Positions 9,592 through 45,105 of a DNA stretch of 45,105 nucleotides are shown piece after piece. The notes below the pieces were generated by a model, which searched no databases, had not been told where the DNA came from, and saw nothing but the letters and a program-made list of their open reading frames with translations. Source of the stretch: Schmidtea nova (Eukaryota); NCBI GenBank assembly GCA_044892505.1, contig CM097882.1, forward strand, positions 283,978,896 through 284,024,000, read 5' to 3'. Numbering within the stretch: position 1 is the first letter of the stretch; each line of letters begins with the position of its first letter. Position numbers and translations under genes: made by a program.

Positions 9592-9772
9592 CTTTAAACT
9601 TTAAATTTGTCTTGACATCCGACGTTTAAGTAATAAAGTTACAAGAATACTCAACATATTTATGTTGCATAAGCCTTTAAACTTTAAAGGCTTATGCAAC
9701 ATAAATATGTTGAGTATTCTTGTAATTTTATTACTTAAATGTCGGATGTCAAGACAAATTTAAAGTTTAAAG
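9592..9772. repeat. Near-perfect palindrome, 90-bp arms, 1-nt spacer
   Basis: 9592-9681 versus 9683-9772; two mismatches, both G:T. Confidence 0.95.
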
Positions 9773-12700
9773 CAGGCCTTATTTTAAGGAATTTTTATCA
9801 CTGCACAAACGGTAGTTTTTTCAGACGTGCCTTGATTGACGAGCCGGGAGTTATATACCCCTCCATTGTAATGACAACAGCCCCCTCCAAAATTTTGAAA
9901 ATTTGGGTACATGTGTGCATTCATTATACACACCACACACCCCAATGGAGGTGAACCCCCCCCCCCCCCCCGAGGTGGAATTTCTGGCGGAAATCCTGTT
10001 GAGGAGAATTCCCTTCTAAAACGGTGTTTGATCTAAACTGGTCAGTTTTGGAGGTGCAACATCTACATATTTAAGACCACTTGGGAGATTTGTGTTTTTG
10101 AGGGTATAAGGAAACACATCTTGATTAAACACTGCCTCTAAAATTGACAATGTAATAAATTGGTTTTACCTTTATGTCTGCACAAAATGCTGAGTAAAAT
10201 TTTAAAAGGAGCAAGAAGCTAATTTTCAATTTCGATACCTATATCGAGCAACAAGAATGTTTTCAATTAAAAGATGTTTGTCTTTAAAAGTTTTCCATGA
10301 CTCATTGTTCAAATATGAATGTTAAATGATCGGAAATGCCCTCCAATTTGTTTGATTAATAATATAAACAACAACACTAAACAGATAATAATAATGAAAT
10401 TGATACAAACACAAGATGTGTGCGTGTGTATGAGAGAGAGAGAGAGAGAATAAACACAGAGAAATCATAGAAACATGACATGCATCAAAATTTCATGTTT
10501 TTTAATTTCATATCAAATGTTTCCGTTTCTTCTGTGGGACAGGGGGATATGAAAATGTTTTTTAACCATTCTTGGTCTTGAGTCTTTGGAGTATCTCGGA
10601 CTCTTCTGTTTTTCGCAGTCATCCATTTCATCACCGCAGGCCGTGGGTCGAAGGCAGAGAGAGGTGGCATGTTCATAAAAATGTGCAGATAGTTTTTAAT
10701 CGTTTTCCTATTCAAACAAGAGCGAGAAGAAGTTTTGAGTAGATTGTATGCTGATATAATTCTTTCACAGTCAGCAGAATGGAGCTTGCATACCAAAATC
10801 CGGCTGAACACTTTAGCTAGCTCATCATATTACTCAGACTTGCACATTTGCTGGAGTGTCTCCAAAGGTTTTTTGTTCTCGTTGCGACTTTGCAAAACAT
10901 CCGTATATTGGTCATTAATCGTAGCCAGGTCAAGGTCAGGAGCAAATGTGTGAAGAACACTCCGTATATTCTCATTGTTCGCCTTGAACGTGACAAAATT
11001 TGTGGTGACATTTGTGTATGTGTCACTGAGAGCAAGTCGAGATTCCATGAAATGTTTTATTGTTAGAACTGTTTCTTGACGAACAGCAGAAAAGTCTCTT
11101 TCTTATGACACAAACATATTTCTCGCAATCATTCGACGTTCTTTTTCCCAAAGTTAAACACCATGTAAAACATTCTCAGGCGTAAGATTCTCGCAGAGAG
11201 CTTCTTCCCATTCTCCAAGCAGAGGTTTTCCTTGTAAAGTTTCCAGCTTTTTGAGAAAATGGGACACTTCTTTGGGCAAGTCGACAATGGTGATTGAGTC
11301 AGACTGCAACCGCTTTTGAAAATTAGTTAGGAGAAAAATTAGATCAGCCATGAACGCCATCAGTTGGATATTTGTTTTGTTCGATAACATTTTCCCAAAT
11401 TTCTTGTTTTGAGAACCTTCCACTGTGCTGAAATACTTTGTTAGAGCTCGCCAGGAAGAGAGAACAGCATCCAAGAGTGAGTGAGAGAACTGAGCCCAGC
11501 GAACTTCAAAATATTTTGGTAGACGTCGAACTGTCAGTCCACTTTCGTTGACAACTATTTCGAGCTCGGTTGAATGCTTAGCGCTCATATGAAAATAAGT
11601 GGATATACCAGAAACCTTCTCGAGTAAATGAGATATGTCTGTCACATTTTTGCATAGATCCTTGAAAGCCAAAGCCGAACTATGAACACCACAGACGGAT
11701 TTAAGTAAGGGCAAACTGCTTTGTCGCTCTTTTCGTTCTCGATCAAGCAAAGGCCAGAGGCCTTCATGTTTCCCGACATTTTTTGGTTCTCCATCCGTCG
11801 ACAAGTGTGTGATTATGTTTAATAAGGCATCAAAACCAACTGTTTCTTCTGATTCTTCTTTGATTGCCTTTAAATGTTCAGTTGCTCCACTTTCTGGGAC
11901 TTGCCCGATGCCAATGAATAGTAAACGTTCATGGCCATTGGGATTTATCGTTTTCATCAGTTCGAACTGGTTCTCTTTTTGAGTGCGATCCATCGAAGAA
12001 TCAAACCGAGAGGAGGCAGCAAGACATGTTTTGACCTCACGCTTGAAGCGTGGCATATCCGCCACTACGATTGCTTCCATCATCTCGTGCTGTGACAGAG
12101 GAGAAATATATTGTAGGTCTATGTTGGGTGATGAGAAAGGAGTGAATGGCTCATTAATGTGGAATAATTTAGACATTTCCTCAGCAACTACGCGAGATGG
12201 GAAAGAATAGGTTGAAATTGTTAGATTTTTGGCATCATTGTACACATGGTACATCAGTCCACCGATTTTATCGGCAAGAGTAGTATTCATTTGGTTGATT
12301 GATTTAATAAGAGGAACTTCTTGAAGTTTTTAAGACATTGATAGCGACGCAAGACAAGCTGCTTTATAACTCTCCTCATGGATGTCACTATTCAAATGTA
12401 TTTTAATTACCTCGCTTCGATGTTCAGTCCCACTTTCAGTGCATATAGGCGGTAGCCTCTGCCTGTAACAGAACCGTTTAGCAGTGTCTTGTTGTTCTAT
12501 ACAAATACGGTATCGCACACGTTTGCACTGGCCTTTGTGGTTTGGCACATTTTCGACGCACGAGAAGGCAACTGGTGATTTATGATCAACAGAGTTCTGT
12601 AGCGCAATAGACGAAGAATCAGTTGTTTCAATGGAATCCGTATTCTCAGACACATCACACCTAGAATCAGTAGACACATGAGGATCAATACACTTCTGTG

Positions 12701-13490
12701 ACACAATGGACGAAGAGTCAGACGATTCAAAATTATCAATGGAGTTCTCGGCTACAACACATGAAGAACTGGTTGATGGAATAGATTCAATAGAGTGCAA
12801 TTCACTGACTGAAGGAATGTTTGGAGATGGTTTAAAAAAAGCGAAGATGTTCGTTTGGATAGACATTACAAGAACACCTGAGCTAATTCAATCACAACTG
12901 AATGCTGGAAAATGAATGCACGGACAGCGGAAAAATAACTAGTGCGTGGTTCACAAACTGGTTGTAGGCGAGTCTACTGTTTAAAAATGGCCAAAGGAGG
13001 GTATGCTTCAACACTTAAACGAGGGAGAGGAGACAGTAGACTGAATTCAAGCACATTTTATTCACACGCATGGGTTCCATTCCCGTATTAGATAATTTTA
13101 TAAACTACACTATGTATTCATAAAAACGTTGTATGTAAACCTAATTCCATAATCAGCAAATTCTATTCACACCTTCACACAGACAAAAGTATCAGAATTA
13201 CGTGTGTAGGGGTTATCAATCGCTAGCGTGTGTATACATTGTATTAAATATTTTGACAGGACTGTCTGTGATAGGCGAAAGACAAACAACTCTCTCCATA
13301 AGGTCTGTTTTGCTTATAGATGAGGCGCCTCACTATCATGTGATTGAAATAAGGACCAATCGCGTGAAATTAACAGGAGAGCAATGTCAATATGATAAGA
13401 AATTAACGCTAATTCAAAATTTCTAACAAAAACAGTACATTTTATCACTGCACATCTTTCATTTATCACTGCACGTTAAAATAAGGCCTG
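9773..13490 (-). mobile_element. Full-length hAT DNA transposon (ZNF862-like transposase)
   Basis: 15-bp TIR CAGGCCTTATTTTAA / TTAAAATAAGGCCTG; 8-bp TSD GTTTAAAG (9765-9772 and 13491-13498); subterminal TTATCACTGCAC repeats. Confidence 0.95.
10485..12866 (-). pseudogene. hAT transposase, about 793 codons in one frame with 4 internal stops
   Basis: ORFs 12330-12866, 11154-12290, 10830-11048 and 10485-10811 share a frame. Motifs: RFDSSMDR, LSTDGE, VCGVHSSALA, EVRW, HSADCERIIS (hATC). Confidence 0.92.
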
Positions 13491-17386: not shown

Positions 17387-17822
17387 TGTAGTGCCTCCGT
17401 CATATATATCTTTATATTGTAATATATTAAAAATATTCATTTATGTTAAATTTAACATATTCTTATATATAAAAACACAAGTGAGTTGTTTAAATATCCA
17501 AATAAAACCAGCAGAATTTAAAATTAGAAGAAAAAAAGGACTTGAAGCATTTCAAAGCAGAATTTAAAATTAGAGGAAAAAAAGCACTTGCAGCATTTCA
17601 AAGTAGAAGAAAATAAATCACTTTAAGAAAATGTATTCAGATATAGATTTGCAACCTGCTACTGTTGTAGCGCTACAAAAACTCAGATGTTTTCTCACGG
17701 ATACTAAAAAGAACAAGCAATGTTACTTAAAAATAAATATTTTATTAGTGTTTATTTTGTATTTTATCTTTTATCCGATTATGACAAATACAAAACGGGG
17801 TATAGAAATACAGAGCCCCACA
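17387..17822 (+). repeat. 5' LTR (436 bp, TG...CA)
   Basis: TGTAGTG...CCCCACA; direct repeat of 20176-20602; contains an internal ~46-bp duplication. Confidence 0.92.
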
Positions 17823-17824
17823 AT

Positions 17825-17835
17825 TGGTGTCAGAA
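17825..17835 (+). promoter_or_regulatory. Primer binding site, tRNA-Leu type
   Basis: TGGTGTCAGAA, 2 nt after the LTR-terminal CA. Confidence 0.85.
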
Positions 17836-18431
17836 CTGACCACTACAGTCCAATGTTTCAATCACATCAAAATTCTATGCCTCCTCAATCAACGATTAAT
17901 CAACAGCCTGACCACTTTGTAATCGTAGCTTCGCAATACCAATCATATTCTGAGCAACAATTGCCCATTAATACTACCAATAACGGACCTATACAACGGA
18001 AAGTTCACCAAATAAGTTATCAACATTGAGCAGCATCAAATGTTAATGCACAAATGCAATTCCAACATCAACATCAAGTATCTCAACCGATTAGTCCTAG
18101 GAGTACAGATGCTTCTAATCACCAAAGCGACATGTCAGAAATTAACTATACCACAGCAGTGTCAATTTCAAGCAACCAACCAAATTATATTATGTTTCCC
18201 GATGCAAACCACATGGCAATATGTATTATTTATTATATTTATATTGAAAAAATTTTATTTATATTTATCATAATTTTATATATATTATTTAATAAATTTA
18301 TTTATAAAATTACCCTTCCCGTTTTCTCTATTCCGCCTTTCTTTCGCCCTTTAACTCCAAAACACACTCATAATCCTAACCTAGATCCAATACACGATAA
18401 CGATTCTTTCGCCAAAACCACACCGATACTA

Positions 18432-19511
18432 CCAGCCTATATCCTCACGCGTTTTAATAACAGAATGCGGGAAATCGCCGTTACTTCCGATATACACGCC
18501 GACATTGACACATCGCTTCGCATTGACAAGACCTCATTCTACGTGTCGTGCAATGGTTCTTTAGTCTCCTCTTCTACCCAGCTACAGTCTAATTCAATCT
18601 TGGACATCAACTGTCACATCCTAGGAGGTGGTAGAATCACAACAGAGCTATTTTTCTCATCCGGATTCCGCTCTATTCTGTTTTTTCTGGACCCGGGCGG
18701 TACACCTTCTTCGTGGTTTCGGATCTTTGAAGCGCGTACGTCTTCCTCTCCAAATTCACGAGCAGATTACCTCCTCGACAGTTTACTTGCCGAATTGATA
18801 GCCGAACTAGCCCCGAAAATTGCTGATGCTCTTGACGCAGGAAATCTATACGAAAGCTTAAAAAATCTAATTACGACCAAACACACTTCTTCACAGACCC
18901 AAGCTCTAAAAAAACTATTGGCGCCACAGATTTACTCAGGCCAACAGCCTAGTCTCTTTTTGGGAGAGATAGTTCGTTCAAACGATGCGGCAGTATCCGG
19001 TCTTTCTAAAAACGCACCTATTCCTTTCTGCACTCCCCTACCATCTACAAACTTTTCTGGCATTGGTTGACTCTGAAGATCCATATCACCTTGCGAAGAT
19101 TGCTGACAGCATTCACGCACTGCAACCATATAAACCCAGCGGAGATATTTACGCAGCACCTCCACTACCCCACCGTTAACGCAGCGCATACACTTCATAA
19201 CCCTTTCCTCGGACAGTTGAAAGATATCCCAACGACACTGCTCCATCACATGATGCACAGCATCCCAATCACCTACCAACAACACGCGCACAAAACATGC
19301 AATCAATAACAGCGCCACACTAATCTGTTTTTATCATAGCAGATTTAGACAGCATGCACAAAAATGCTGCATCGGTTGCATGTCTGAATTTCGCCCCCAT
19401 CAAAGTCCAACCATTCCAGTTTGTATCCATCATCATCTCTTCAAGAACGATGCCAGATCGTGCCTTGACGGATGCACATGGCGCACAAGCGACTACCATC
19501 CACCAAAACAC
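18432..19511 (+). pseudogene. Ubiquitin-like domain fused to Gag with two C-x2-H-x8/9-C-x3-C fingers (frameshifted)
   Basis: Ubl ..SFYVSCNGSLV..LQSNSILDINCHILGG (18432-18629); Gag PSSWFRIFEAR..QQPSLFL; FLSALPYHLQTFLA..LAKIADSI (18985 frame); ICFYHSRFRQHAQKCCIGC and VCIHHHLFKNDARSCLDGC. Confidence 0.8.
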
Positions 19512-20163
19512 TAATCAAGTCATCGGATATTTTTGGACGCTACGATAACTCCCCGCCAGTGAATTGCCTTTCTCACAGCCAACCATGTCCAACGCATACA
19601 CGATTAACTCCGTCAGCTAGCATCATATCAGAAACAACCACTACTCTCTCCACAGTACTATTTTCTCACACAACACCACCACCAATACCAATACAGGAAC
19701 CAACACTAGAACAAGAACCAACCAGCTCACCTCGCACAACACTTGCAAGAGCACCAACAAAAACTTCACCCAGCACACCGCACACAGCACCATCCGCATC
19801 ACTACCAGCTGCAGCATCCATAATACCATCAAAAACACCACTAACAATACCACAAGCATCGCTAACCTTTTCCGACAACGAAACCCACACAGACTACACA
19901 CACATTCTACCACAGTCGCCACAAACCGCATTTCCGTCATTGCTCTCACCAACACTTATCGTCACGATGGAAACATACTCGTCCTTTTCAATACTACCTA
20001 CCGCTTTCATCGCAGACACATCTTGCTCATCATCCGCCCTAGCCGCGAAAGGTACACACAAACTGCTCTCCGGTATAAGAACAATTGAGTTTCGTCCTCC
20101 AAGTATTTTTTACTCCGACCCTTGAATACCGTTTTGTCTTTTCCCATACGCTTGGCGTACTTC

Positions 20164-20171
20164 GGCGGGGA
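20164..20171 (+). promoter_or_regulatory. Short polypurine tract
   Basis: GGCGGGGA just upstream of the 3' LTR. Confidence 0.6.
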
Positions 20172-20175
20172 CTAT

Positions 20176-20602
20176 TGTAGTGCATCCGTCATATATATCT
20201 TTATATTGTAATATATTAAAAATATTCATATATATTAAATTAAACATATGCTTATATATAAAAAACAAGTGAGTTGTTTAAATATCCAAATAAAACCAGC
20301 AAAATTTAAAATTAGAAGAAAAAAGCACTTGAAGCATTTCAAAGCAGAATTTAAAATTAGAGGAAAAAAAAGCACTTGCAGCATTTCAAAGTAGAAGAAA
20401 ATAAAGCACTTTAAGAAAATGTATTCAGATATAGATTTACAACCTGCTACTGTTGTAGCGCTACAAAAACTCAGATGTTTTCTCACGGATACTAAAAAGA
20501 ACAAGCAATGTTACTTAAAAATAAATATTTTATTAGTGTTTATTTTGTATTTTATCTTTTATCCGATTAAGACAAATACAGAACGGGGTACAGAAATACA
20601 GA
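20176..20602 (+). repeat. 3' LTR (last ~8-10 bp missing)
   Basis: Aligns to the 5' LTR with roughly 15 differences by eye; diverges before the terminal GCCCCACA, so no TSD can be checked. Confidence 0.9.
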
Positions 20603-31570: not shown

Positions 31571-32197
31571 TTGATTTTCGTTAATAATAGCGATTACAAA
31601 ACAGCGATTACAAAGATAGCGAGTAGTTAAAAATAGCGACCACAAAACAAAGATTTAATATAAATTTTTCAATTTAGATAAATAGTATATAATTGACAAA
31701 GTTATATCACATAAACTGTATTTCAATGAAAAATTCATTCGAAAATCAAAAATGATATGATTTTATAAAACTATAATCAAAATTTATTAATTAAAAATTA
31801 AAAAATAACAATATAAAATAATAATAATAATAATGATAATAATAGTGTTGGGCCCACCAATTGGTCTAAAAAGACAAAAATATTGTACTAATTCAAACAA
31901 TAAATACAAATAATAACCACAAAAACATTCGAAAAACCTAAATTAAAAAATCAAAATAAAATAATAAATAATAATTACTAAATTTCCAGCAAAGGAAGAA
32001 AATCAAATTGACACGGGAACGAGCAGTATGGGGATCTGAAATAAGAAAATTACAAATAAAATCAAATAAAAGTACAATTAATTGGTTAATTACTTGAAAA
32101 AATCAGGACCACCCAGCGAGAAATCTGAACCGGAAATTTAAAATGGTTTATATTAAAATAAAATAACAAAATTACTTTGATGGACGGCCTGATCCTG

Positions 32198-32232
32198 ATT
32201 GGTCAATCTGACCAACTGGATCAGTATAAATA
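32198..32232 (+). promoter_or_regulatory. Candidate LTR promoter: inverted CCAAT plus TATA box
   Basis: ATTGG at 32198-32202; TATAAATA at 32225-32232. Confidence 0.5.
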
Positions 32233-33150
32233 CCGATCCAAAAATCATACAGATACCCTAAAAACTTAGCTACCGAACTGATCTATAACAGTCAGTTACA
32301 TCAACTTTGATACGACAAATATTGTGTAAAATTTTGGAAGCGCTGCATCTTGGATTTAAAGAGTAAATTTTGTTGTATTGTATTTGAACTAATTTTATGA
32401 TATGTTTTACATGATTCCCATTCATTTCATTTCATTTAATATAATTTATTACTATTAATTGCTCTATTTTCTTATGCTATTATTTTATGATATGATAAAT
32501 ATACTTCCTCAGTAGCTCACGCTGCGAGGGAGTAAGCCGTAAATGTGGGATTTCACCGTTCCACAAGATGGTGAGCAGAGTTTCTATTGGTATTTTTTTA
32601 TTTAATTTAATTTTTTATCAGAGGTTTAACTTTACAGTAAAGTTGTACAGGGACAAGAACACGGGTAAAATTAGTAGACAGTGTTTAACATTAGTTAATT
32701 AACGTTCGATCAGACAGGAGAGAATAAACTACAGTATCAATTATCATGTCAACTAAATCGATTTCGCATATGCACACGATTTTTTCGAATCCACATAGCT
32801 GATCGAAATAATGTCCGGACACACCGAGACGATTTCGACATTTCAACGATAGTTTTAATTAAGATATAAATAACAACATAATCAGATTGACACTACTGAT
32901 TGAATAACTAAAACCGTAACCTGATCGCTGTAAATAGCGCAGGTGATAATATGTAAATTTTTAATAAACGTATCCCGATCGCTGTATATAGCGACGGTGT
33001 TAATTGAATAGCTTAGAAAATTTTTTTTTTATTCCTCCTTTTCATATTTTTTTTGTTTTGTTGATCAACGAGAGGAGCACATTTCATCAGGTCTCACCAA
33101 AATTTGCGGATTCGTCACAGTAAATTTTATTAGCATTATTATTTTCTCAG

Positions 33151-33651
33151 ATGAAATCAACGATACTGGATGAATTTCTAACAACCCAACGTCGTGCGGC
33201 ACGGGACGAAAATCCTCTAATCCGGACGCAACAGAAGAAATTGAAGTCGCTTCCACAGGAACTTCTAAGAACGCTAAATGCGTTGATGTACAAGTGGAGA
33301 CGGGAACTGGGAAAAAAATGTCCATTTTCGATTTGGACCGGTGGATTAGATACCATCATATATCGAGGAGGCCCCGGATGGAAAAGTTCAGACGAAAGAG
33401 ACCCCGAAACGACAGCTCGATTCATCATAGTGTTGACGGACATCGCAGGCAACCCAACGACCGTAATCCACTGGGGATATGTCTCACCGCTCAAGTTGCT
33501 TCGATTTGGTTTGATTCCGAACCACCTACTGAAAACGGACCATGGACGCCCCAAACTAAACTGTTCAATGGCTCACATCCGACGAGATCCAGTCAATCAC
33601 GGGTTGCATATTACCCCCGTTCACGGCCTCAAGCGAAGCGTTTTTCACTAA
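33151..33651 (+). CDS. Intact 166-aa hypothetical accessory protein inside the probable LTR
   Basis: ATG-to-stop ORF, GC-richer than its flanks; no recognisable motif. Confidence 0.55.
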   Translation: MKSTILDEFLTTQRRAARDENPLIRTQQKKLKSLPQELLRTLNALMYKWRRELGKKCPFSIWTGGLDTIIYRGGPGWKSSDERDPETTARFIIVLTDIAGNPTTVIHWGYVSPLKLLRFGLIPNHLLKTDHGRPKLNCSMAHIRRDPVNHGLHITPVHGLKRSVFH

Positions 33652-33803
33652 AAATTCTATTCACATTACTATGAACTAAATGTTTTCTATAAATTAAATG
33701 GTGTTGATCTGTGTTTTGTTTGTTATTAGTTAAATTTCTATCTATTTATTTAATTATACAATCTTTTACACTTGACGGATAATATTAGTCGTTGGTAACA
33801 TAA

Positions 33804-34427
33804 TTGCTGCATCATAAAATAGGTTTGTTATTTAGTATGACAGAAACCAGCCAACAGCGGGAATTGGATAAGGCGTGGAGAATCCGCCGAGCATTAGAAA
33901 AGGAGTTAAATCAAGAGAAAGCATTTCGAGCCAAGGCAGAAGCTCAGATCCAGCATTTACGGACCAGCTGGTTCGCCCCAGCTCGCATGAAGGAGCAGAT
34001 AAGTCGAACGGATAGGGCTCAAAAGACAGCTGACGACTATCGTACCGAATGGGAAGCAACAAAAATTGAGTTGCGCCGATGTCTCCATTCGGTGACGACT
34101 TCTTTTATCGAGTCCGAATTGAGATCACAAATCCGACCTATCACCTACCAGAAATGGGTAGGAGAACAGAAAGTGGCCTGCTCGGTCAGTACGGACACCG
34201 ATGGGCTCGAGACAACAACAGTGCAGAGTCGGGTGGAAACCACCACTGCATCAAACCCCGTCGGAAAAATGAACAAGCGAAAACGAATCGGCTCCAAACG
34301 CCGTCGCCAAAGAAAGCTGTTTTCTCAACAGTTGCAGACACAAGTGACCACTATGGCCGAAATGTCGGAAGCCGAGTGGTTATCCGAGATATTCCCTCCT
34401 GAAGGAATCTTCAAAGAATTTCTGTAG
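33804..34427 (+). CDS. Intact accessory protein: coiled coil, basic NLS, acidic-hydrophobic C-terminus (likely ATG at 33837)
   Basis: RELDKAWRIRRALEKELNQEKAFRAKAEAQIQHL; KRKRIGSKRRRQRK; EMSEAEWLSEIF. Confidence 0.6.
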   Translation: MLHHKIGLLFSMTETSQQRELDKAWRIRRALEKELNQEKAFRAKAEAQIQHLRTSWFAPARMKEQISRTDRAQKTADDYRTEWEATKIELRRCLHSVTTSFIESELRSQIRPITYQKWVGEQKVACSVSTDTDGLETTTVQSRVETTTASNPVGKMNKRKRIGSKRRRQRKLFSQQLQTQVTTMAEMSEAEWLSEIFPPEGIFKEFL

Positions 34428-34917
34428 CAGATAGAAACATAATATGATGTCAGATTTTGGAGTTAATTAAATCTTTGCTCGTTTTGTTTTGTTGTTGTTA
34501 TTTCCTATGTATATTCTTCGATTACATAATTCATATAATTAAATTTACCTTACCCGTCACACAACGAAAGGAGTAGCGTTAAAGAATTAGAATATCATCG
34601 AATTCGTAGTTTCGTTTTGCTTGTTTTTTTTTGTTTTTATGATAAATATAGAACATCACACACACAATGGAACAATAATTGCGTAAGTCCTTCTACGGCC
34701 GCGTGAACCCGTAAACATAAAGGGGGAGTAGTCCTAGCAATAGTGCTCACGTGCCCCTCATTGTTTAACCACCCTGCGCATCCCCAACTTGGTTATCAAG
34801 GGAAATAATCAAGGGCGCTCGAGTGTAACTTACGACTATTTATGCATGATCATGGATGGGAGATCCCTAGCAATCATTAGAATTTTTACCAAACCGTCCA
34901 TGAACCCAGCATAAATT

Positions 34918-34935: not shown

Positions 34936-35248
34936 TAGCTTCGTTTTATCGGAAAAATGTGAATGCAAAATCTGCAGAGAAGTTTAAAGTGCTCGTGTCG
35001 TGTGAATAAATTCAATAAAAACAGAGAGTTTATAATTAAATCTAAATTCTGAACAAAAATAAACCACAAACACAACAGTAATAAAAGTAAAGTTATAAAA
35101 ATCAAATGCATGTATAAATAATTTGTCGGGACGACAATTTTAGGAAACACGGGGAGAGTAAATAAATATTAAAGATACAAAACGAAACATATTACTACTT
35201 TAAATAAATATTAAAAGACACAAAACGAGACATATTACTACTTTAAAA

Positions 35249-35752
35249 ATGATAAAAACAACAAAGTTAAAACGATTATTTATTCAGCAAATGGAGGAAA
35301 AACTGAAAGAAATCGAAGAATTTCTTAACACAGAAAACGAAACATTAGCAACAATTGGCAAGAAAATAAACCGATTTAGAGAAATTGAATTTCAAGAACC
35401 CACAACACAGACCGAGGAAACAGATGAATTAATAAAGATAACAGAAAGAACAAGTAAAATCGACATAAAAACCCGCTACAAATGGTACAGAGCACGACTA
35501 GAGAATGCGGAGCTAAACATTAGATGCAGACAAATAGAACAACAATTAACCCCAACATACAATCGATGGAGGGCGCAAGGGGTAGAAGCAGCGAAAAAAT
35601 ACCGACAGTGCTATATATGTGAAAACAACGAGATACAAATTATGTTTTTACCTTGCGGACATTTCCGTTTTTGTAAGATCTGTGCCAGCAAGTGTGACCG
35701 GTGTCCGATGTGCAACTTTACTGTGAATGAAAAAATTGTAGTTTATTTGTAA
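35249..35752 (+). CDS. IAP-type C-terminal RING (C3HC4) E3 ligase with N-terminal coiled coil, no BIR
   Basis: CYICENNEIQIMFLPCGHFRFCKICASKCDRCPMCNFTVNEKIVVYL* versus XIAP [46 protein letters not shown] overlaps the stop (35751-35756). Confidence 0.9.
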   Translation: MIKTTKLKRLFIQQMEEKLKEIEEFLNTENETLATIGKKINRFREIEFQEPTTQTEETDELIKITERTSKIDIKTRYKWYRARLENAELNIRCRQIEQQLTPTYNRWRAQGVEAAKKYRQCYICENNEIQIMFLPCGHFRFCKICASKCDRCPMCNFTVNEKIVVYL

Positions 35753-36219: not shown

Positions 36220-36312
36220 GTTATTAGAGTTGTCCCTTGAAACAAAGGGTTATTAGCGGTTTGTCCCTTGAAACAAAGGGTTATTAGCGGTTTGTCCCTT
36301 GAAACAAAGGGT
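36220..36312 (+). repeat. 31-bp tandem repeat, ~3 copies
   Basis: TGTCCCTTGAAACAAAGGGTTATTAGCGGTT at 36231, 36262 and 36293. Confidence 0.95.
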
Positions 36313-36313
36313 T

Positions 36314-36582
36314 GAGGCCAATGAGCCATATTGAATGACCTAGCTAGGCGTTATGGAGAGATATTAAATTGAGGCCAATAGAGCCATGCGAGAGATTAAA
36401 TTGAGGCCAATAGAGCCATATGAGAGATTAAATTGAGGCCAATAGAACCATATGAGAGATTAAATTGAGGCCAATAGAGCCATATGAGAGATTAAATTGA
36501 GGCCAATAGAGCCATATGAGATATTAATTTAAGGCCAATAGAGCCATGTGAGATATTAAAATTGAGGCCAAAAAGAGCCATA
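36314..36582 (+). repeat. 32-bp tandem repeat, 7 copies plus a partial, nearly all with GGCCAAT
   Basis: (G/A)AGGCCAA at 36371, 36403, 36435, 36467, 36499, 36531 and 36564 (last copy CCAAA). Confidence 0.95.
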
Positions 36583-37190
36583 GAGAATTATAGAGATATC
36601 CGGATAATTAGTAACAGAGGGAATATAGGCCATAGTTGTGATCGGCAACGAGATTAAGAATAGTGCGCACTAGTAGTTAAGAAATGCGAGTAAAGCTGAT
36701 TATGCAACCTGAAGTAAAGCATGCAAGGAGAATAATAAAAAATTAGAGCTGACCGGAGAAACCGGCAGACTAGGTAAAACGATAGCTAGCAATGAGTAAT
36801 GAATAGAGATGATAAAATAATGATAAACGAGTCAGAAAGACTCAGGGAATTAGAGCGCTCAAGCGACCAATAATTGGGAAATTGTGGGAAAAGTAATTGA
36901 TTTGTAAAATATAGATAATTATTACGACATAAATAGATAATTGTGACCAGTCTATAGATAATTTAAATAGACTAAAAATAAAGGGAAATCTGGGGATTGG
37001 GAAATAATGAAAACCCGGTAATAATTAATCCCGAAAGAAAGGGAATAAAAGCGCGACGATAACAATAATGTATCGTTGAGGACCTTTGTATTTTAGATAT
37101 ACAAATCAATCAAATCAATCAATCAAGCAAGAAGAATCAGAACACGATAAGAAATAGGACAGGAAAATTGAGTATACAAAAGTAATCCCG

Positions 37191-38570
37191 TTGAGAACAG
37201 GAGTAAAGAGTGTCGTAATAAAGCCAACAGAAAAGAAAGTCGGCAGTGAGAGTAACAAAAAAGACAAAACTAGTACTACCACAAAATCAGCAAAAAAGCA
37301 GAAAGCCGGCAAAGATAACAACAAAAACCCACAAGGGAGTAAAGCGAGGAAGATAATAAGAGACAAATCGATTATCGAAAACGATAAATTGTCAGTAGTA
37401 AGCAACAGCTCAAGTAACAAAGAAAACCAAGCGGAACCCAAGGAGAACCAAACAAGTGAAATAGAAATCGACGAAACTAACAACGATAATATCGAAGAAG
37501 TAGAAAACGAGGTAGAACCAGAGGTAGAAATCAACGAGAGTGATAACGAAAGTATAATATCGGATAACGAAGTAATAAGAGAAACAGAAAGCGACTCAAG
37601 CTCGAGTGAAACAGAAGACGAACATAACAACGAACTAGAAACAAGAGGAAACGAAAGTAAAATAACTCAAGACAGCGGAATTGAAATGGGTGAACCAAGA
37701 GAAGAAATAAAGGATAAATTTTCAGGAGAACCATTTAACGGAGATGCGAGTAAATTAGAAACTTTTCTAAAGGAATTTGGCATATTCGTGGAGGTATGCA
37801 AGTGGAAAGCTGAAACAACAGTAAGCAGAATTCAGTTATATTTGAAAGATAGTGCATTGGACCTATATTTGGAAGCGAAAAATGGTACCAATCCACCTGC
37901 AAATTGGACAGCGATAAAGGATTTTTTCCAACAAACCTTTGGAATAAATAAAGTGCTAAGCGAGGCATTCATAGAATTTTCAATGAGGAAACAGAAGATG
38001 AATGAGTCTAACGCGGTATACGCGAGCGAACTGAAAAAATTAGCAAAATCGGTATTCAAGGATGGGGGTCCAATAAACGAGGAACTAATGGCAGCCATCT
38101 TCATAGGAGGATTAAGAAGACCCGACATAAGAGCGCAAGTGGGATGCCAAGGATGCAAAACCATAGATCAAGCGTTAGAAACAGCTAACCGATTCGAATT
38201 GCACATGATAGGAAGCGAGGGCAGAATTTACTTAGCCATGGACACAGCGCAAACCGAACAAGAGGTAAATCTCAACAATCACATCCCAAATTCGCAACAG
38301 TTAAACCGACCACCCCCTCAACGAAGGAATGAAGGAAATAAAGTGCAGAACTTTGGAAACCAAAACAATTACAACCCTCAAGGACAAACAAAACAATGTA
38401 AAACATGTGGAAAGTTGGGACACTGGCAGCAAGAATGCTATCAAAATTTGAATTGCGGAAAATGTGGGGTCAAAGGACATTCGGAGAGTAGATGTTCTAC
38501 GATAACCTGTTTTAATAGCGGACGACCTGGTCACTACTCAAGAAATTGTGGACAAAAAAGTAATCAGTGA
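37191..38570 (+). CDS. gag: Polyprotein segment 1: acidic N-terminus, Ty3/Gypsy Gag capsid, three CCHC knuckles
   Basis: PFNGDASKLETFL..LYLKDSA..W..IKDFF..KQKMNESNAVY..FIGGL; CKTCGKLGHWQQEC, CGKCGVKGHSESRC, CFNSGRPGHYSRNC (38397-38549); true start codon unresolved. Confidence 0.92.
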   Translation: MRTGVKSVVIKPTEKKVGSESNKKDKTSTTTKSAKKQKAGKDNNKNPQGSKARKIIRDKSIIENDKLSVVSNSSSNKENQAEPKENQTSEIEIDETNNDNIEEVENEVEPEVEINESDNESIISDNEVIRETESDSSSSETEDEHNNELETRGNESKITQDSGIEMGEPREEIKDKFSGEPFNGDASKLETFLKEFGIFVEVCKWKAETTVSRIQLYLKDSALDLYLEAKNGTNPPANWTAIKDFFQQTFGINKVLSEAFIEFSMRKQKMNESNAVYASELKKLAKSVFKDGGPINEELMAAIFIGGLRRPDIRAQVGCQGCKTIDQALETANRFELHMIGSEGRIYLAMDTAQTEQEVNLNNHIPNSQQLNRPPPQRRNEGNKVQNFGNQNNYNPQGQTKQCKTCGKLGHWQQECYQNLNCGKCGVKGHSESRCSTITCFNSGRPGHYSRNCGQKSNQ

Positions 38571-39860
38571 GGAAACTGGCAGAATAATGGAAACCGGCAA
38601 AATTACGGAAATCAAACAAATACCGTAAACCGACAAGATTATGGAAACCAACAAGTCCATAATAACCATAATCAGAACAAAACTACCACCAAAGAAATAC
38701 ATTTGATGCAAGAAGTCCAAAGGTTGACGGAACTTATAAACAACACGACGAGAGGAAATCCACAAACCAATCCACAGCAAATTAGTATGATGAGAAAAAT
38801 AGAAAGCGAAAACGAACGATTGAATCGAGAAAGTCAAGCACTACACGCTCAGGAATGGGCAAGAATACAAAGAGAAGATGAACAAAAACAGCAAGAAAGA
38901 GAGCGACAACCTCTAAGAATTAACATGTTGAGAGCAACAAATCAAACAGATACCCACGAGAAAGAAACCACATTAGAAATAAATTCGAATCCAACCGACA
39001 ATGGAAGTCGAAAAGGAGTAATACAAGACGATAAGGAAGCAGAAAAAGAAATAGAAAAGGAAGTAGAAACTGAGATAAACCAGGAAGAGAGGAGGAAAAT
39101 TTGGAAAAAAGGAATGATGGTAATCATGCCCAACAACCATATGTTTCGATTCCAATATAACACAAAAGAAGAGGTGGCAATACTGTTTAACAAAGTAAAC
39201 CAAATGGTTCCAGGAGTAACAAAACTGCCCAGAGAAGCGTTCCTACAAATAGACGGTGCGCCAGAAGTAAAGTTGAAATTAACGGATATATGGGAAAACA
39301 TGGGAGTAGTAGAAACAAAAAGAAACGTGATGATTATCAAAGAAATAGAACCAGAGAAAATCCCAGCACCAGTGCGTCACGAAACCCGAATCAGTCGAAT
39401 ATTTAAAGGAAAAATGATAAGAAGACGTTTGAAAGAGATAGACGAGTTGGAGAAGAAAATGAGAAAAGTCGAAGTAATAGAGGACAAGAGTGAACCAACA
39501 CCAGAGATTGACAAAAACGAACCAGAACGAACGGAGAATATACAGGGGGAAACGAACCAAATAGCACACATTAATATGTTAAGAAATACCACCAGAGAGT
39601 TTTCCGATGAGGAAGGAGATAGCGATATCAGTAGCCTAGCAGGAGACATATTAAACGAACCCGAAGACGAAAATAAAGAGAGAGAAGTAATAACGACCTC
39701 AGAACCTACACAGATAAAAGTAGATGAAATCCAGAAATTACTAGATAACTCGCTAGACGTAATATATAACGAAGAGTTCATGGACAAGAAACAATACCGG
39801 AAATTCATGAAAGCATTATTACAAATGAACTACAAAGAATGGTTACAAGACCGGAAGTAG
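38571..39860 (+). CDS. Polyprotein segment 2 (in frame with Gag after TGA): N/Q-rich, coiled coil, possible Ubl, acidic
   Basis: 38703-37191 is divisible by 3 and the frame is open from 38571; beta-grasp-like MVIMPNNHMFRFQYNTKEEVAILFNKV..LTDIWENMGV (39111-39338). Confidence 0.75.
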   Translation, partial: GNWQNNGNRQNYGNQTNTVNRQDYGNQQVHNNHNQNKTTTKEIHLMQEVQRLTELINNTTRGNPQTNPQQISMMRKIESENERLNRESQALHAQEWARIQREDEQKQQERERQPLRINMLRATNQTDTHEKETTLEINSNPTDNGSRKGVIQDDKEAEKEIEKEVETEINQEERRKIWKKGMMVIMPNNHMFRFQYNTKEEVAILFNKVNQMVPGVTKLPREAFLQIDGAPEVKLKLTDIWENMGVVETKRNVMIIKEIEPEKIPAPVRHETRISRIFKGKMIRRRLKEIDELEKKMRKVEVIEDKSEPTPEIDKNEPERTENIQGETNQIAHINMLRNTTREFSDEEGDSDISSLAGDILNEPEDENKEREVITTSEPTQIKVDEIQKLLDNSLDVIYNEEFMDKKQYRKFMKALLQMNYKEWLQDRK

Positions 39861-42040
39861 ACATGTTAAATCGATACGTAGGGAAATTAATAGAGGAACC
39901 ACTCCTCAATTACACCATCTCAATAATAATAAATACATCTACACCAAGAATCTGGATCAAAACTCCATTTACAGACGATATCTACAGATGGGTAGAGGAC
40001 AGGCTAGGTAGTTCATATAAAAACAAATTCATCTATTCGCAGAATAGACTCGTAAAGAAAAGAACGCATTTAGTAGAAACAGGTATATGGCCAGGAGAAG
40101 TAACCCTGTTATCAATATGTGATGAAAAGGAAGGAGAGAACCTACAAGAAGTTGCAAAGGAAGCAAACACGTGCTTTGAAAGGAGAATAAAACCACGGTT
40201 AGAATACGAGAAAGGACGAGTCTTACGAAAGAATCTAAATTCCCTGATAGAACAAATCATACCACAAGTCAAAAAACATAGAAAGGAGTTAATGCGAAGC
40301 GAATACGAGAAGCTGAAACGATGCATCGAGTGCATACGTGACACAAGTCACACGAGATGGTCACAGATCTCACACGACAAATTAATCGCAAAAATGGGAA
40401 AAACAATGTTCAGACAAGGGAAAATAACGGATCTAAAAATTTCAGTAGAGTTACCTAATGAGGACACCAAAGAAATTGAAGTGGTAGCAGATTGCACCAT
40501 AAGAGAATTAGTAAAGATCATAAACGAGACACTAGTGCAGACAGAACCAGAAGACGAATGGGAAGACGACATAATCATGAAATATAACGAACATGTATTA
40601 TGGGATCACGATGAGAGACGACTATATAAAATCGGTATATGGGATAATCACCAAACCATCCACGTTATCAGAATGGACGATACACCCAGAGAAACTGCTA
40701 AAGATGAGAAAAAAGAACGGGAACGACAAAAAGAAGTTATACACAAATTACAACAAATAGCAGAAATTTATCGAAATTGGCGGATTTGGCCGGAGTGGGA
40801 AAATGCATTAGAAGAACTCAATCTCAACAGACGAATACGAACATCCGTAGAAAAACAATGGAACGAGCAAGGAAAATGTTGGGAACCAAAAGAAGGGGAA
40901 TATAAAGAAGAATATGAAAGAGGAATGGAAGGTGACTGCGAACCAGAAATGGGAAGGGTTTGCATGGTGACAAGAAAAACTACGCCAATAGATCTAGATG
41001 GACCAGAAACAGCGGCTATATGGTTAGAAAAGGAAAAGCAAAAAACGGAAGAATTAGTCGAAATATTAAAAACTAATGCGCACGGTAAGAGAAAAGTAAT
41101 AAAAGGTCTCGCAGATTTTTTCGTGGTTAATGGAGAAGATGTAACATGCTTGCGTAAAGTAGCAAAAGCAATCGCAGAATATAAAAGAGTCAACGAGTGG
41201 TGTCCGGAACAACTAGACCACGTAATTAGGAAATGGAGAAATCAAGAATACTCGCAAGAAATTCCACAAAAAGTACATTTAAGAATAATATATCCAAACA
41301 AGGATAAGGAAGAATTTTGGGTAGGAATAGCAGAAAAAATTTGAGATATTAAAAAGAAATTGAGATACGAACCACCATTCCATTTACAACACCAAGGACG
41401 ATCACTAGATAACAGTTTGGAAATCTGAATAACGCCAGCACAACTAGATCTCATGAATACCTTGACAGTAGAAGCAATAGCAGGTCAACCATTGAAACGT
41501 AAAGAAGAAAACCATAAACCACACGGAAGTATAAGTACGCCGAGCCCGATGAAATCAGTATTAACGCAAGGGACAAGTTCAAAACGATCTGAGACAACAC
41601 CCAGAGGGAATAGAGAAAGGACTCCACCACAACCATATGACGTGGACGAAATATTAACAGACAGCGACGACATGATAGAAGAGCTAACCAAATTAACAAA
41701 GGAAAAAGACGACAACATTTTCGAAAGAATACAAGAACTACCTACGACAATACAAGTAACCAACACCGGAGAAGCAGAAGTCGAAGATGAAATAATAATA
41801 GAAGAAGTAAACGATTTGACAGAAGACGAAACGAGAGGAGCGAATGTACAATTAACACAAGAAATGGAAAGATGGTTGGAAGAAAGAGCCAACGAACCAA
41901 GAGATGTCACGGAAGAAACCGGACGGGCAACAAGGTTTGTGGAAACAGGTACAGGAATGGATAGACGACCTCGAGGTAGACCCAAGACAGATCCAGCGAA
42001 TGTAGTCATCAGAAATAAGGATGAAAAGAGACAAGATTAA
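39839..42040 (+). CDS. Polyprotein segment 3: ubiquitin-like domains plus acidic linker (two internal TGA)
   Basis: Ubl 40433-40675 LKISVELPNEDTKEIEV..TIRELVKII..IMKYNEHVL..LYKIGI..QTIHVI; weaker Ubls at 39911-40120 and 41273-41455; the frame continues across TGA 41342 and 41426 into ORF 41453. Confidence 0.75.
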
Positions 42041-42520
42041 TGGGAATTATGTTTAAAGAAATTAAATAAAATCGCGGAGATAAAAGAAAAAGAGACAACA
42101 CCAATATGTCAAGGGAAGGAATGGATATCGAAAACAATAATGGAAATATTGGCAATAATTGATCCGGAATTGAGAAAATACTGGCGGATAACTGAGATAA
42201 GCGAAAAGGCGAAGTCATTACACAGCGCAATCGCACCCATCTTACCGGAATTCATAAAAGAGAAAACTAAGTCAAATCATTTAGACTGGCAAGGAACCAC
42301 TACGTTAATAAAGAAACTGACAGAAGGAGCGGAAACAGATAACAAATACGTAATAGCCATTGCATACACTATTTACAACCTACTAACACTGAGTAGAGGT
42401 CGACCAAAACCCACTGCGTTGGAAAGACACATAAAAAATACCGCAAAAATTATAGCCAGAGAAATAGAACCATACATCATTAACAAAGGAGGATGGGAAA
42501 CATTTATCAAAACTAACCAG
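42041..42520 (+). CDS. Polyprotein segment 4: Bcl-2-like domain
   Basis: IKNTAKIIAREIEPYIINKGGWETFIK aligns with Bcl-xL alpha6-BH2 ([28 protein letters not shown]); helical pattern upstream; BH1 NWGR degenerate (DNKY). Confidence 0.7.
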
Positions 42521-42616
42521 AAGAAAACGCAAGCCAAGAACATGAAAAAGAAATTCGAAGAGATATTGGGAGAATTGGAAAAAGAACAAGCAGGAACAGG
42601 AAACGCGAAGTCGTCA

Positions 42617-44545
42617 ATGAACCTGAGTTCAATTATAATGATGATGTTGATATGGATGATTAGCACCGATAGCGCAACAGCGTTCGAAGTATTTGATTGC
42701 GATCAGATGGCATTAGGCGAAAAATATTCATTGCGAGGTACAGAGCAATGTAAGGATGCAACTCCAACGGAACTAAAGACAATACAAAAGAAACAACTCT
42801 ACCATGTGTACCAGGAAGCGGAATTGATAAAAACCATGGTTAGAGAGTGTAAAATTTATAAAACAAGATTCGCTTTCTATTGTGGACACCGTCATTATTC
42901 GGCAATCGTAATGCCAGGAACCGAAAGAGAATCAGTAATGCTGCAAGGAGAAGATTGCGAAAAATTGTTCAGACACGGGGAAATAGAAACAAGAGATAAG
43001 ATAAGATTGAAAGGGAAAGTTGGAGCGATATTACAACAAACCTTATACGTAGCAGCAGCTATCACAGGAGGAGAAGGCTATTGTCAAGGAGAAACCTACC
43101 CTATATTCGGAAAACCAGCAACGAACTTAGTGGTGATTGACACCTACACAGTAGAACTTAAAGCATACGAAGGATTCTTTGACCCAGCGACAGGAGAAAT
43201 GAAAACCCTGCCGATATGTAAGATAGACGCGAATACCTGCCAAACAGGCCTGTCAACTTTAACATACCAAACGCGAGGAAATGAATGTCAATTACAATTT
43301 TTAAAGCAAGCAGAATTCGATGAAATACAAGGAAAGACTTTCCAAGAGGAAGAGGAAGACGAAGTAGCAAGAGGAAAGATTCTCAAAGAAACAGTACAGG
43401 TAGAAGGAAAGATCGAAGCAACACAGGAAAAACAAATCAGAATGAGAAATACCCCAACGGTACTCATCTCCTCGGATGAAGATATAGGAATGAGATTCGT
43501 AAAAGGTAAAACAGCCTTGAAATGCGGAGTATCAATGTTAGAAACCAACTATCCCGGTATCTTCGTATCAAGACAAGATGTACCTAACGCAAAACGTCAA
43601 GTAAACACGAACGATGTTAAACTACACCTCTACGTAAACAATAAAATGGATTTCCTATTTCACAGAGGACAAGCTTCATTACAAAAGGTGTATTACGACC
43701 TTATTAACAACGATTGTATATTGAATAGAGAGATACTGAAAACAAAGTTAGCAGTGGCCATCACCAATCCAGACAGTGCAATGCCACTATTGCCACTAAG
43801 AGAAGGTCATTTTGGAAGAGTAGTTGGTGAAGTTATGTACGTATACATATGCAAAAAGACTAACGCAAAAGTTGCAACGGCGACAAAATTACAACCAGGG
43901 CAATGTACAAACGAATTAGAAATAGAATACAAAGGAAAAGTTAGATACGTACAGCCAGTAAAAAGAATTATAAATCCAGTAAGCTTCGAACCAAACCCTT
44001 TCAATTGCAGCAACGCATACGGACCATTATATCAAAAACCGGATGGAAATTGGGTTATGTTTCCCGCAAGAACGGAAGTACCAGCACCAAGAGAATTCGA
44101 ACTAATGCGATTATCGAAAAGACGAAAATTCAAAGACGTCGATGTAAGCAATATGGGATTTTATAGCGCGAAAGATTTAGAAGCAGCAAGACAAAATATA
44201 CTGTTCCCAGCAAGGAGAGAAGCGGTACTATCCAGTATTGTAACTATAACAGGAGGAACAAATTACCAAGGTGGACCCAATTATGAACTACTTTTATCAC
44301 CAGCTCATTTTAAGAAAGCAACTGAGAATATGATGAAAGCGATGTGGGGAAGGTTTTTGATTTTCGGACAAATGATGGCAGGAATACTTGGTGTCATACT
44401 AATAATACAAATAATACGGGTGGTCATAACACAAATGCTCGCGTGTTTTTATATTTACAAAAGAGAAAAGAAAGTCAACTGGAAATTAGTGTTAGGATTC
44501 TTACCATTTCTGGCTAAAACCATGGTGTTACAGATGAAGAAATAG
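42617..44545 (+). CDS. env: Polyprotein segment 5: internal signal peptide plus chuvirus-like (class III, gB-like) envelope glycoprotein
   Basis: IIMMMLIWMISTDSATA|FEVFDC; LYYDL..C.LNREIL..LA..NPD..GH..VVGEV.Y...C; QP..RII; GFYSAKDL; FPARREAVL; W..FLIFG..AGILGVILII TM; all follow chuviral G patterns. Confidence 0.85.
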   Translation: MNLSSIIMMMLIWMISTDSATAFEVFDCDQMALGEKYSLRGTEQCKDATPTELKTIQKKQLYHVYQEAELIKTMVRECKIYKTRFAFYCGHRHYSAIVMPGTERESVMLQGEDCEKLFRHGEIETRDKIRLKGKVGAILQQTLYVAAAITGGEGYCQGETYPIFGKPATNLVVIDTYTVELKAYEGFFDPATGEMKTLPICKIDANTCQTGLSTLTYQTRGNECQLQFLKQAEFDEIQGKTFQEEEEDEVARGKILKETVQVEGKIEATQEKQIRMRNTPTVLISSDEDIGMRFVKGKTALKCGVSMLETNYPGIFVSRQDVPNAKRQVNTNDVKLHLYVNNKMDFLFHRGQASLQKVYYDLINNDCILNREILKTKLAVAITNPDSAMPLLPLREGHFGRVVGEVMYVYICKKTNAKVATATKLQPGQCTNELEIEYKGKVRYVQPVKRIINPVSFEPNPFNCSNAYGPLYQKPDGNWVMFPARTEVPAPREFELMRLSKRRKFKDVDVSNMGFYSAKDLEAARQNILFPARREAVLSSIVTITGGTNYQGGPNYELLLSPAHFKKATENMMKAMWGRFLIFGQMMAGILGVILIIQIIRVVITQMLACFYIYKREKKVNWKLVLGFLPFLAKTMVLQMKK

Positions 44546-45105
44546 GACGCAAATTTAAAAAGATAATGAATGACGAACAAGCAAGACAACAGCTCAAGAG
44601 AGAAAGAAAAGGTTTATGGGAGAGGATGAAAGGATATAAAACCCAAAATGATTCGAGCGACGACGATGATGACGATGATGACTATAAAGGAGGACAAGTG
44701 TATAAGAACCAAGCACCACAATACATCGAAAAGAACCCAGCTGACGCATGGAAATGTTACGCACCCCCACCAACAATGTATCAAGAACCACTACAAGGAG
44801 GAAGAACGACCACGATGCAAATGATGCCAATGACGAATGTATACCCCATGATACCAGAAGATTATAAAATGAGAAGATGCAGAAGTGTGGATCCACAAGG
44901 AGATACGCATACGATCGCCGTGATGTCATCAAACACAGGTCCAGTACTAACCACGACAATAGAAATTAACGGAAGAGAAATCGAAGCAATAATCGACACT
45001 GGAGCAAATATTTCCGCCATCGACATCAAATGGATACCACAAGAGCAAAGACGGGATATAGAAAGGACGAACGTCCACGTAATTGCATGTAGCAAAGAAA
45101 TTGTA
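44518..45105 (+). CDS. pol: Polyprotein segment 6 (-1 frame): cytoplasmic tail and start of retropepsin; runs off the window
   Basis: Open frame absent from the ORF track (no stop): NHGVTDEEIGRK...GPVLTTTIEINGREIEAIIDTGANISAID; DTG at 44995-45003. Confidence 0.9.

Follow-up and report, generated by a model that had tools for sequence, protein, structure and literature searches.

Three probable ubiquitin-like domains precede the Bcl-2-like domain in the polyprotein of a Burro-type retroelement of Schmidtea nova

Introduction

What occupies the stretch between Gag and the Bcl-2-like domain in the polyprotein of a giant long terminal repeat (LTR) retroelement of Schmidtea nova? The element begins within a 45,105-nucleotide stretch of the forward strand (assembly GCA_044892505.1, contig CM097882.1, positions 283,978,896 to 284,024,000), which, taken whole, we term the window. 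An earlier note on this DNA had proposed up to four ubiquitin-like domains (Ubls) in the region, at 39111-39338, 39911-40120, 40433-40675 and 41273-41455, here called S1 to S4. All four segments translate as claimed, the GIW motif described as common to S2 and S3 is borne out in the translations, and Gly-Gly is indeed absent from the ends of all four. Their placement is likewise sound, with a zinc knuckle match upstream (PF00098, E=6.6e-6) and a Bcl-2 match downstream (PF00452, E=0.1). The count of four fared less well, in that S2, S3 and S4 gain support as Ubls but S1 does not.

The element is a recent Burro-type Ty3/gypsy element, assigned by published layout, a kinship that the earlier note had overlooked along with the Ubl already published at this position. 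It shares with the Burro group a size of about 30 kb, long LTRs, high copy number, an in-frame Env between Gag and Pol, the order protease, reverse transcriptase (RT), RNase H and integrase (PR-RT-RH-IN), and a cargo of BCL-2-like (only E=0.1 in the window copy), MATH/TRAF, ankyrin and RING domains. In the Burro/GYPSM1 planarian elements the published text places one Ubl between MATH and BCL-2, with a Ubi2/SUMO-like motif, PF11976 (PMC6431247). A single Ubl is already on record; what is likely to be new is a small array whose size varies between families.

Sequence evidence for the ubiquitin-like domains

A glocal profile was made for this analysis from two related element families of the same genome (families B and C, described below) and host ubiquitin-type sequences, with the window family excluded and one host row (L206), which carried a long insertion and a stop, dropped. 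When the coding frames of the element were scanned with this profile as 74 non-overlapping windows, S4, S3 and S2 took ranks 1, 3 and 4, with edges near those given earlier and an unrelated window at rank 2, a ranking that is partly circular because the earlier note had picked these windows for their Ubl appearance. Against 150 shuffles per segment, z was 6.6 for S4, 2.9 for S3 and 3.9 for S2, the observed score being reached by 0, 1 and 0 shuffles, respectively, and three control segments gave z of at most 0.5 with the same profile. The orthologs of S2, S3 and S4 in family D gave z of 4.8, 3.0 and 7.5 (0 of 150 shuffles each), and the S2 ortholog in the database protein P0001 is the best-scoring window of that whole protein.

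For S3, Pfam returned Ubiquitin_4 (E=0.051) and SAP18 (E=0.08), the ESM Atlas held Ubl clusters at 0.87-0.89, which serve as leads only, and a PDB search with its profile gave ubiquitin-type proteins in 3 of 5 rows, the top row, the DSK2 UBL, not being significant at E=0.23. Its family D ortholog matched FERM_f0 (E=0.005), OTU1_UBXL (E=0.009) and PI3K_rbd (E=0.16), all of which are beta-grasp families. No Pfam match was obtained for S1, S2 or S4, and PDB sequence searches with the whole open reading frame (ORF) and with S1-S4 yielded nothing significant. AlphaFold2 models, built for S1 with 25 near-identical rows and for S2-S4 with 17 rows (family D, L034-L063, not among them), had predicted local distance difference test (pLDDT) scores of 37 and 34, too poor to test the fold. 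The S1 model ran beta-beta-alpha-beta-alpha, and a beta-grasp would fit the order of secondary elements in S1 and in the initial half of S3, in models too poor to count. Foldseek with the S1 model gave ATG12 as its top row (E=0.97, not significant), and in fold searches of both low-pLDDT models a few rows of low root-mean-square deviation were beta-grasp proteins, none significant. Because every segment taken singly stayed short of the Pfam cut-offs and of PDB significance and the predicted folds were of low confidence, we infer the beta-grasp rather than observe it. Taken together, the sequence patterns make it probable that S2, S3 and S4 are all Ubls.

The case of S1 is different. Its Ubl pattern was at background (z 0.9, reached by 27 of 150 shuffles) and stayed at z 0.3-1.2 after sequences of S2-S4 or family D were added to the profile (0.9, 0.5, 0.3 and 1.2 with the four profiles). 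S1 was not found in the relatives checked, namely P0001, a second database protein, P0002, and the loci retrieved for families B, C and D; tblastn against 79 loci of these families and host Bcl-2 matches was empty, and no match was found in the ESM Atlas. At the corresponding position P0002 has a charged stretch. That S1 is a Ubl is therefore doubtful.

Variation of the array among related families

Three further families (B, C and D) with a Gag-Ubl-Bcl-2-Env layout were found in the same genome, and every one of the four families seen keeps the order Ubl, Bcl-2, Env. Family D (L034-L063) is a diverged sister family with an ORF of about 5,000 aa, which shares about 31% identity with the window family in the Ubl-array region as against 87% in RT/RNase H; identity across S2-S4 is 37-53%, with S4 at 53%. 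Its order is S2, S3, an in-frame MATH domain and S4, which puts S4 at the published Ubl position and makes S2 and S3 extra. In the window family only a less conserved stretch lies between S3 and S4, and the MATH domain is found instead in the 3' RING-TRAF ORF. Searches of protein databases found only P0001 and P0002, longer proteins being outside their scope; P0001 carries S2, S3 and MATH, in the published in-frame MATH layout, and P0002 carries S2.

Families B and C encode shorter products of about 3,400 aa with two Ubls and about 3,070 aa with one Ubl. These Ubls give sub-threshold matches to PF11976 (E=0.0013 and 0.006), and a joint B/C profile retrieved ubiquitin, FAT10 and ISG15 from the PDB, with single-domain matches at E between 3e-4 and 8e-3. 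It is likely that the size of the Ubl array differs between element families, with one, two or three domains in one genome.

Two other features of family B (L095, L097) were recorded. In both of its subfamilies a PTAP and then a YP(x)3L motif, late-domain-like and absent from the window family, lie between Env and the protease, and an extra ORF downstream of Pol (L095:6186-7634) has motifs that we take to resemble a DEDDh-type 3' exonuclease. Ubiquitin was also met in a separate high-copy family (L153, L154, L156, L162 and most of the 150 scored matches), presumably BEL/Pao-like from the look of its Gag and Pol, which has picked up host sequences (Hsp70-like and others) and, fused upstream of Gag in the same frame, a near-canonical ubiquitin. 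This ubiquitin mostly ends in LRLRGG, where a host deubiquitinase (DUB) could cut.

Purifying selection and a possible repeated unit

The ratio of nonsynonymous to synonymous variants (N/S) was taken from variants common to at least 3 copies among 29 sibling copies, and is rough, given small counts (1-44 per cell) and the relatedness of the copies. It was 0.03 in S2, 0.07 in S3, 0.06 in S4, 0-0.07 in the helical units and 0.05 in the Bcl-2-like domain, as against 0.25-0.39 in three linkers. S2-S4 are under strong purifying selection, and S1, at 0.29, varies like a linker. The suggestion in the earlier note that the Ubls are integral modules that cannot be conjugated agrees with this selection, with the lack of a diGly end and with the single reading frame seen in the siblings.

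A helical stretch of about 70-80 aa (H1 to H3) precedes every supported Ubl. A profile of the pre-Ubl helices of families B and C placed H2, H1 and H3 at ranks 1, 3 and 5 of 74, which is suggestive of each supported Ubl being part of a repeated helix-Ubl unit; the array may have grown by repetition of such a unit. Searches assigned the helical unit to no protein family, and a HOIL-1/SHARPIN tethering motif and a TFIIS N-terminal domain, both considered as leads for it, gave no match. A LUBAC UBL of the HOIL-1/SHARPIN type was not among the PDB search rows, in searches that are insensitive at this distance.

A putative processed product

The window element contains four copies of the motif I-[N/H/S]-[M/L]-[M/L]-[R/Q], a pattern selected after inspection of the sequence, between the zinc knuckles and H1 and one after integrase, and none was found from S2 to the protease in the window copy. 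The motif occurs four times in P0002, and in family D three times in the corresponding region and once after integrase, with one looser match after MATH. The element protease would cut at these motifs of the I-N-M-L/M-R type. As the last of them lies upstream of H1 and S2 and none follows up to Env, cleavage would leave one product, [H-Ubl]x3-linker-Bcl-2-like-hydrophobic segment, and S1, between two candidate sites, would be a separate family-specific insert released on its own. In each of the four families a single strong hydrophobic segment is present, and it separates the Bcl-2-like domain from Env (Kyte-Doolittle mean 1.85-2.44 in B, C and D); it would hold the product at the membrane while doubling as the Env signal.

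Ile44 forms the main receptor patch of ubiquitin. The residue aligned with it, placed by alignment and not by structure, is I in S2, K in S3 and Q in S4; the family D orthologs have, in the same order, Y, V and Q, while K, R or Y stands there in the Ubls of families B and C. The Ile44-centred patch of proteasome-receptor UBLs of the RAD23/DSK2 type is not reproduced, with Ile in S2 only, and since the patch is mostly lost an ordinary ubiquitin-receptor decoy is argued against. The reading that we favour is a docking scaffold of three non-conjugatable Ubls fused to the Bcl-2-like domain and serving anti-death cargo, to which, from the sequence evidence, we would give a probability of about 0.45. 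The Ubls would recruit host proteins of the ubiquitin/SUMO system or of signalling through surfaces other than the Ile44 patch, and this recruitment would help the anti-apoptotic cargo (Bcl-2-like, RING and TRAF) to keep the host cell alive.

Alternative explanations

The scaffold is favoured over three other functions for the array. Each of the four families has the array in frame after Gag and before Env, which could point to particle assembly. The Ubls, the Bcl-2-like domain and the anchor would then make up an extended cytosolic leader of Env; by mimicking ubiquitin or standing in for matrix, this leader would connect Env with the Gag core or attract the budding machinery. The foamy-virus leader peptide and coronavirus nsp3 Ubl1 offer precedents, and family B has the PTAP and YP(x)3L-type motifs after Env. 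However, ESCRT ubiquitin receptors use the Ile44-type patch that is mostly lost here, and neither PTAP nor PPxY nor YPxL occurs between Env and the protease in the window family. An array that varies from 1 to 3 domains, with S2-S4 at only 37-53% identity between families that share 87% in RT/RNase H, has more the look of a part that faces the host; we regard the assembly role as unlikely. The proposal that came with the earlier note, in which four Ubls would be receptor decoys (proteasome, UBA or DUB) or would pair with the RING ligase of the element, is in keeping with the missing diGly, the RING and TRAF-MATH genes that co-occur in the element and the Ile retained in S2. It is weakened by the lack of support for S1 and by the other Ile44-aligned residues (S3 has K, S4 has Q, the family D ortholog of S2 has Y, and B and C have K, R or Y), and appears quite unlikely. 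Inert folding or solubility spacers for a giant polyprotein, with no specific host partner, would explain why Ubl number varies freely and why identity between families is low; yet constraint within the family is strong and equal to that of the Bcl-2-like domain, and Ubls are retained in four of four families, which leaves this explanation the least plausible. A different doubt is whether only S4, or S4 and S3, are true Ubls and the remainder chance beta/alpha patterns. S2 has neither Pfam nor PDB support and the predicted folds are of low confidence, but its z of 3.9-4.8 in two families and the rank of its P0001 ortholog make this improbable.

Several observations weigh against the scaffold reading itself. 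The family D ortholog of S3 ranks only 5 of 14 windows, and the z of 2.9 for S3 is weak when taken alone among 74 windows. Support for the Ubls depends on a profile specific to this analysis and on windows preselected for a Ubl look; in the window family all segments stay short of the Pfam cut-offs and of PDB significance, and local hhalign and hmmsearch comparisons gave no significant link of S1-S4 to ubiquitin or of S2-S4 to the B/C Ubls. An acidic linker is likewise constrained (N/S 0.10), and under the pattern used the candidate cleavage motif is absent from families B and C. H2 has a shuffle z of 2.3, no better than a coil control, and because that control scores equally against shuffles the repeated helix-Ubl unit is only suggestive.

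Features of the host element and its surroundings

The element spans 29.3 kb, from position 31846 to about 16 kb beyond the window, with two LTRs of 3,066 bp each that are 99.6% identical, TG...CA termini and a 4-bp ATAG target duplication. Pfam matches give the order RING ORF, Gag zinc knuckles, Ubl region, Bcl-2-like domain, Env fusion glycoprotein (Monjiviricetes-type) and protease, followed by RT, RNase H, integrase and ankyrin repeats, with RING-zf-TRAF-MATH near the 3' LTR (Table 1). The RING of the accessory ORF is one that we take to be IAP-type; no BIR domain was detected in the ORFs scanned with Pfam, which included part of the accessory ORFs. The PF00452 match of the Bcl-2-like domain is stronger in families B and C, reaching E=2.7e-4 and 1e-3 in one related family.

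Table 1. Features of the element within the window (window coordinates)
Feature	Position	Strand	Remarks
5' LTR	31846..34911	+	3,066 bp; 3' LTR outside the window, in L032
Separate accessory ORF with C3HC4 RING at its end	35204..35752	+	PF13920 E=4.2e-11
Gag, CCHC zinc knuckles	37158..38570	+	PF00098 E=6.6e-6; stop at 3' end in window copy
Candidate element-protease motifs	38694..39584	+	starts 38694, 38778, 38916, 39567; last two bracket S1
S1, small lineage-specific segment, Ubl status unsupported	39111..39338	+	z 0.9; N/S 0.29
H1, helical unit before S2	39710..39900	+	spans frame change of window copy
S2, likely Ubl	39911..40123	+	z 3.9, rank 4/74; N/S 0.03
H2, helical unit before S3	40232..40426	+	N/S 0.07 for 40124-40426
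S3, likely Ubl / beta-grasp domain	40427..40672	+	z 2.9; N/S 0.07
H3, helical unit before S4	41030..41260	+	N/S 0.05; conserved in P0001 and family D
S4, likely Ubl	41267..41473	+	z 6.6, rank 1/74; N/S 0.06
RRPRGRPK, presumably AT-hook-like	41963..41986	+	RGRP present also in families C and D
Bcl-2-like domain	42041..42500	+	PF00452 E=0.1; N/S 0.05
Hydrophobic segment, predicted anchor/signal	42620..42685 (approximate ends)	+	Kyte-Doolittle 19-residue mean 1.45
Env-like fusion glycoprotein	42686..44545	+	PF24664 E=1.1e-70
Retropepsin start	44518..45105	+	then RT, RNase H, integrase, ankyrin repeats in L031

The window copy is broken by stops and a frame change in the Ubl region: its ORFs overlap at 39770-39860, marking the frame change within H1, S4 contains two in-frame TGA stops (41342-41344 and 41426-41428), and a TAA at 42038-42040 immediately precedes the Bcl-2-like domain. 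A genome search with a 1.7-kb probe gave 542 candidates, and all 40 that were scored had at least 95% identity. In the 29 sibling copies fetched, the frame from S1 to S4 is open in 23 by hand count and S4 is free of stop or shift in 27. The siblings have an uninterrupted frame from the end of Gag to the Bcl-2 region, and in sister family D it is uninterrupted through Env and Pol.

Elsewhere in the element, the RING, zf-TRAF and MATH accessory gene near the 3' LTR lies at L032:553-1932, with one stop in the window copy, and a long extension past the ankyrin repeats (L031:6057-9980) has repeated Cys-containing modules and hydrophobic segments but no real Pfam match. Both LTRs contain a near-identical open frame of 207 aa (window 33804-34427, L032:5924-6547) with no informative Pfam match. 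Tandem repeats of 31 bp and 32 bp occupy 36230-36613, between the RING ORF and Gag, and the coding strand is strongly A-rich across 37000-45105 and L031-L032 (AT skew about 0.3-0.5, as against about 0 in the flanks). The remainder of the window holds a DDE_1/Tc5 transposase at 4823-5815 on the minus strand (E=1e-44), an inverted repeat at 9592-9772 (90-bp arms, 98% complementary, 1 nt apart), interrupted frames at 10485-12887 on the minus strand that lack a Pfam match and look to us like a hAT-type transposase, and a small element at 17387-20602 whose 429-bp direct repeats match at 96.5% and which retains a decayed piece resembling Gag (DUF7041, E=0.0013).

Relation to known systems and implications

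Integral, tandem and non-conjugated Ubl modules are known from the SUMO-like domains of Rad60/Esc2/NIP45, and coronavirus nsp3 (Ubl1/Ubl2) and USP7 (UBL1-5) use Ubl domains within a large protein as docking modules. The Rad60/Esc2/NIP45 model (PF11976) is matched weakly, below the cut-off, by the Ubls of families B and C and not by those of the window family, and the setting differs; for nsp3 and USP7 no sequence link was found, and the likeness is one of analogy only. Ubiquitin, ISG15 and FAT10 are matched weakly by the B/C profile, but S2-S4 differ from them in having no C-terminal diGly and a mostly replaced Ile44-aligned residue, and are not conjugatable.

The closest counterparts are the Burro/GYPSM1 elements, whose published text agrees with the window element in a size of about 30 kb, one polyprotein, Gag, Ubl, BCL-2-like, PR-RT-RH-IN and ankyrin repeats, an in-frame Env related to mononegavirus glycoproteins, and RING and MATH/TRAF cargo (PMC6431247). 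That text gives one Ubl, whereas three are supported here, and S2 and S3 precede the MATH position; the window family further departs from it in the separate 3' RING-TRAF ORF that carries MATH and in a RING ORF in which no BIR was detected (PMC6431247). The literature searches turned up no multi-Ubl array described for a Burro element; the figures or supplements of earlier Burro papers could show more than one Ubl. An anti-apoptotic role of Burro1's IAP, and a report that one Burro element aids stem-cell survival, are both cited in PMC13465017; the text on Burro1 expression and PIWI control does not mention Ubls (PMC8532177).

A wider reading, improbable as a whole, would make the array an expandable [helical bundle + Ubl]n (n = 1, 2 or 3) fused to a Bcl-2-like domain with an anchor doubling as the Env signal, one processed protein that both prevents the death of the host cell and joins the core with the envelope, with Ubl surfaces changing fast between families in conflict with host ubiquitin signalling. 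Such a single processed protein, if true, would be new among retroelements. The present finding refines a known system and opens no new one. Few transposons carry, as Burro elements do, cargo linked to apoptosis and the ubiquitin system, and roughly half of the Burro polyprotein had no annotation before; the three probable Ubls and the candidate processing sites would define a concrete protein product within it, and families with one, two and three Ubls in one genome provide a natural comparison.

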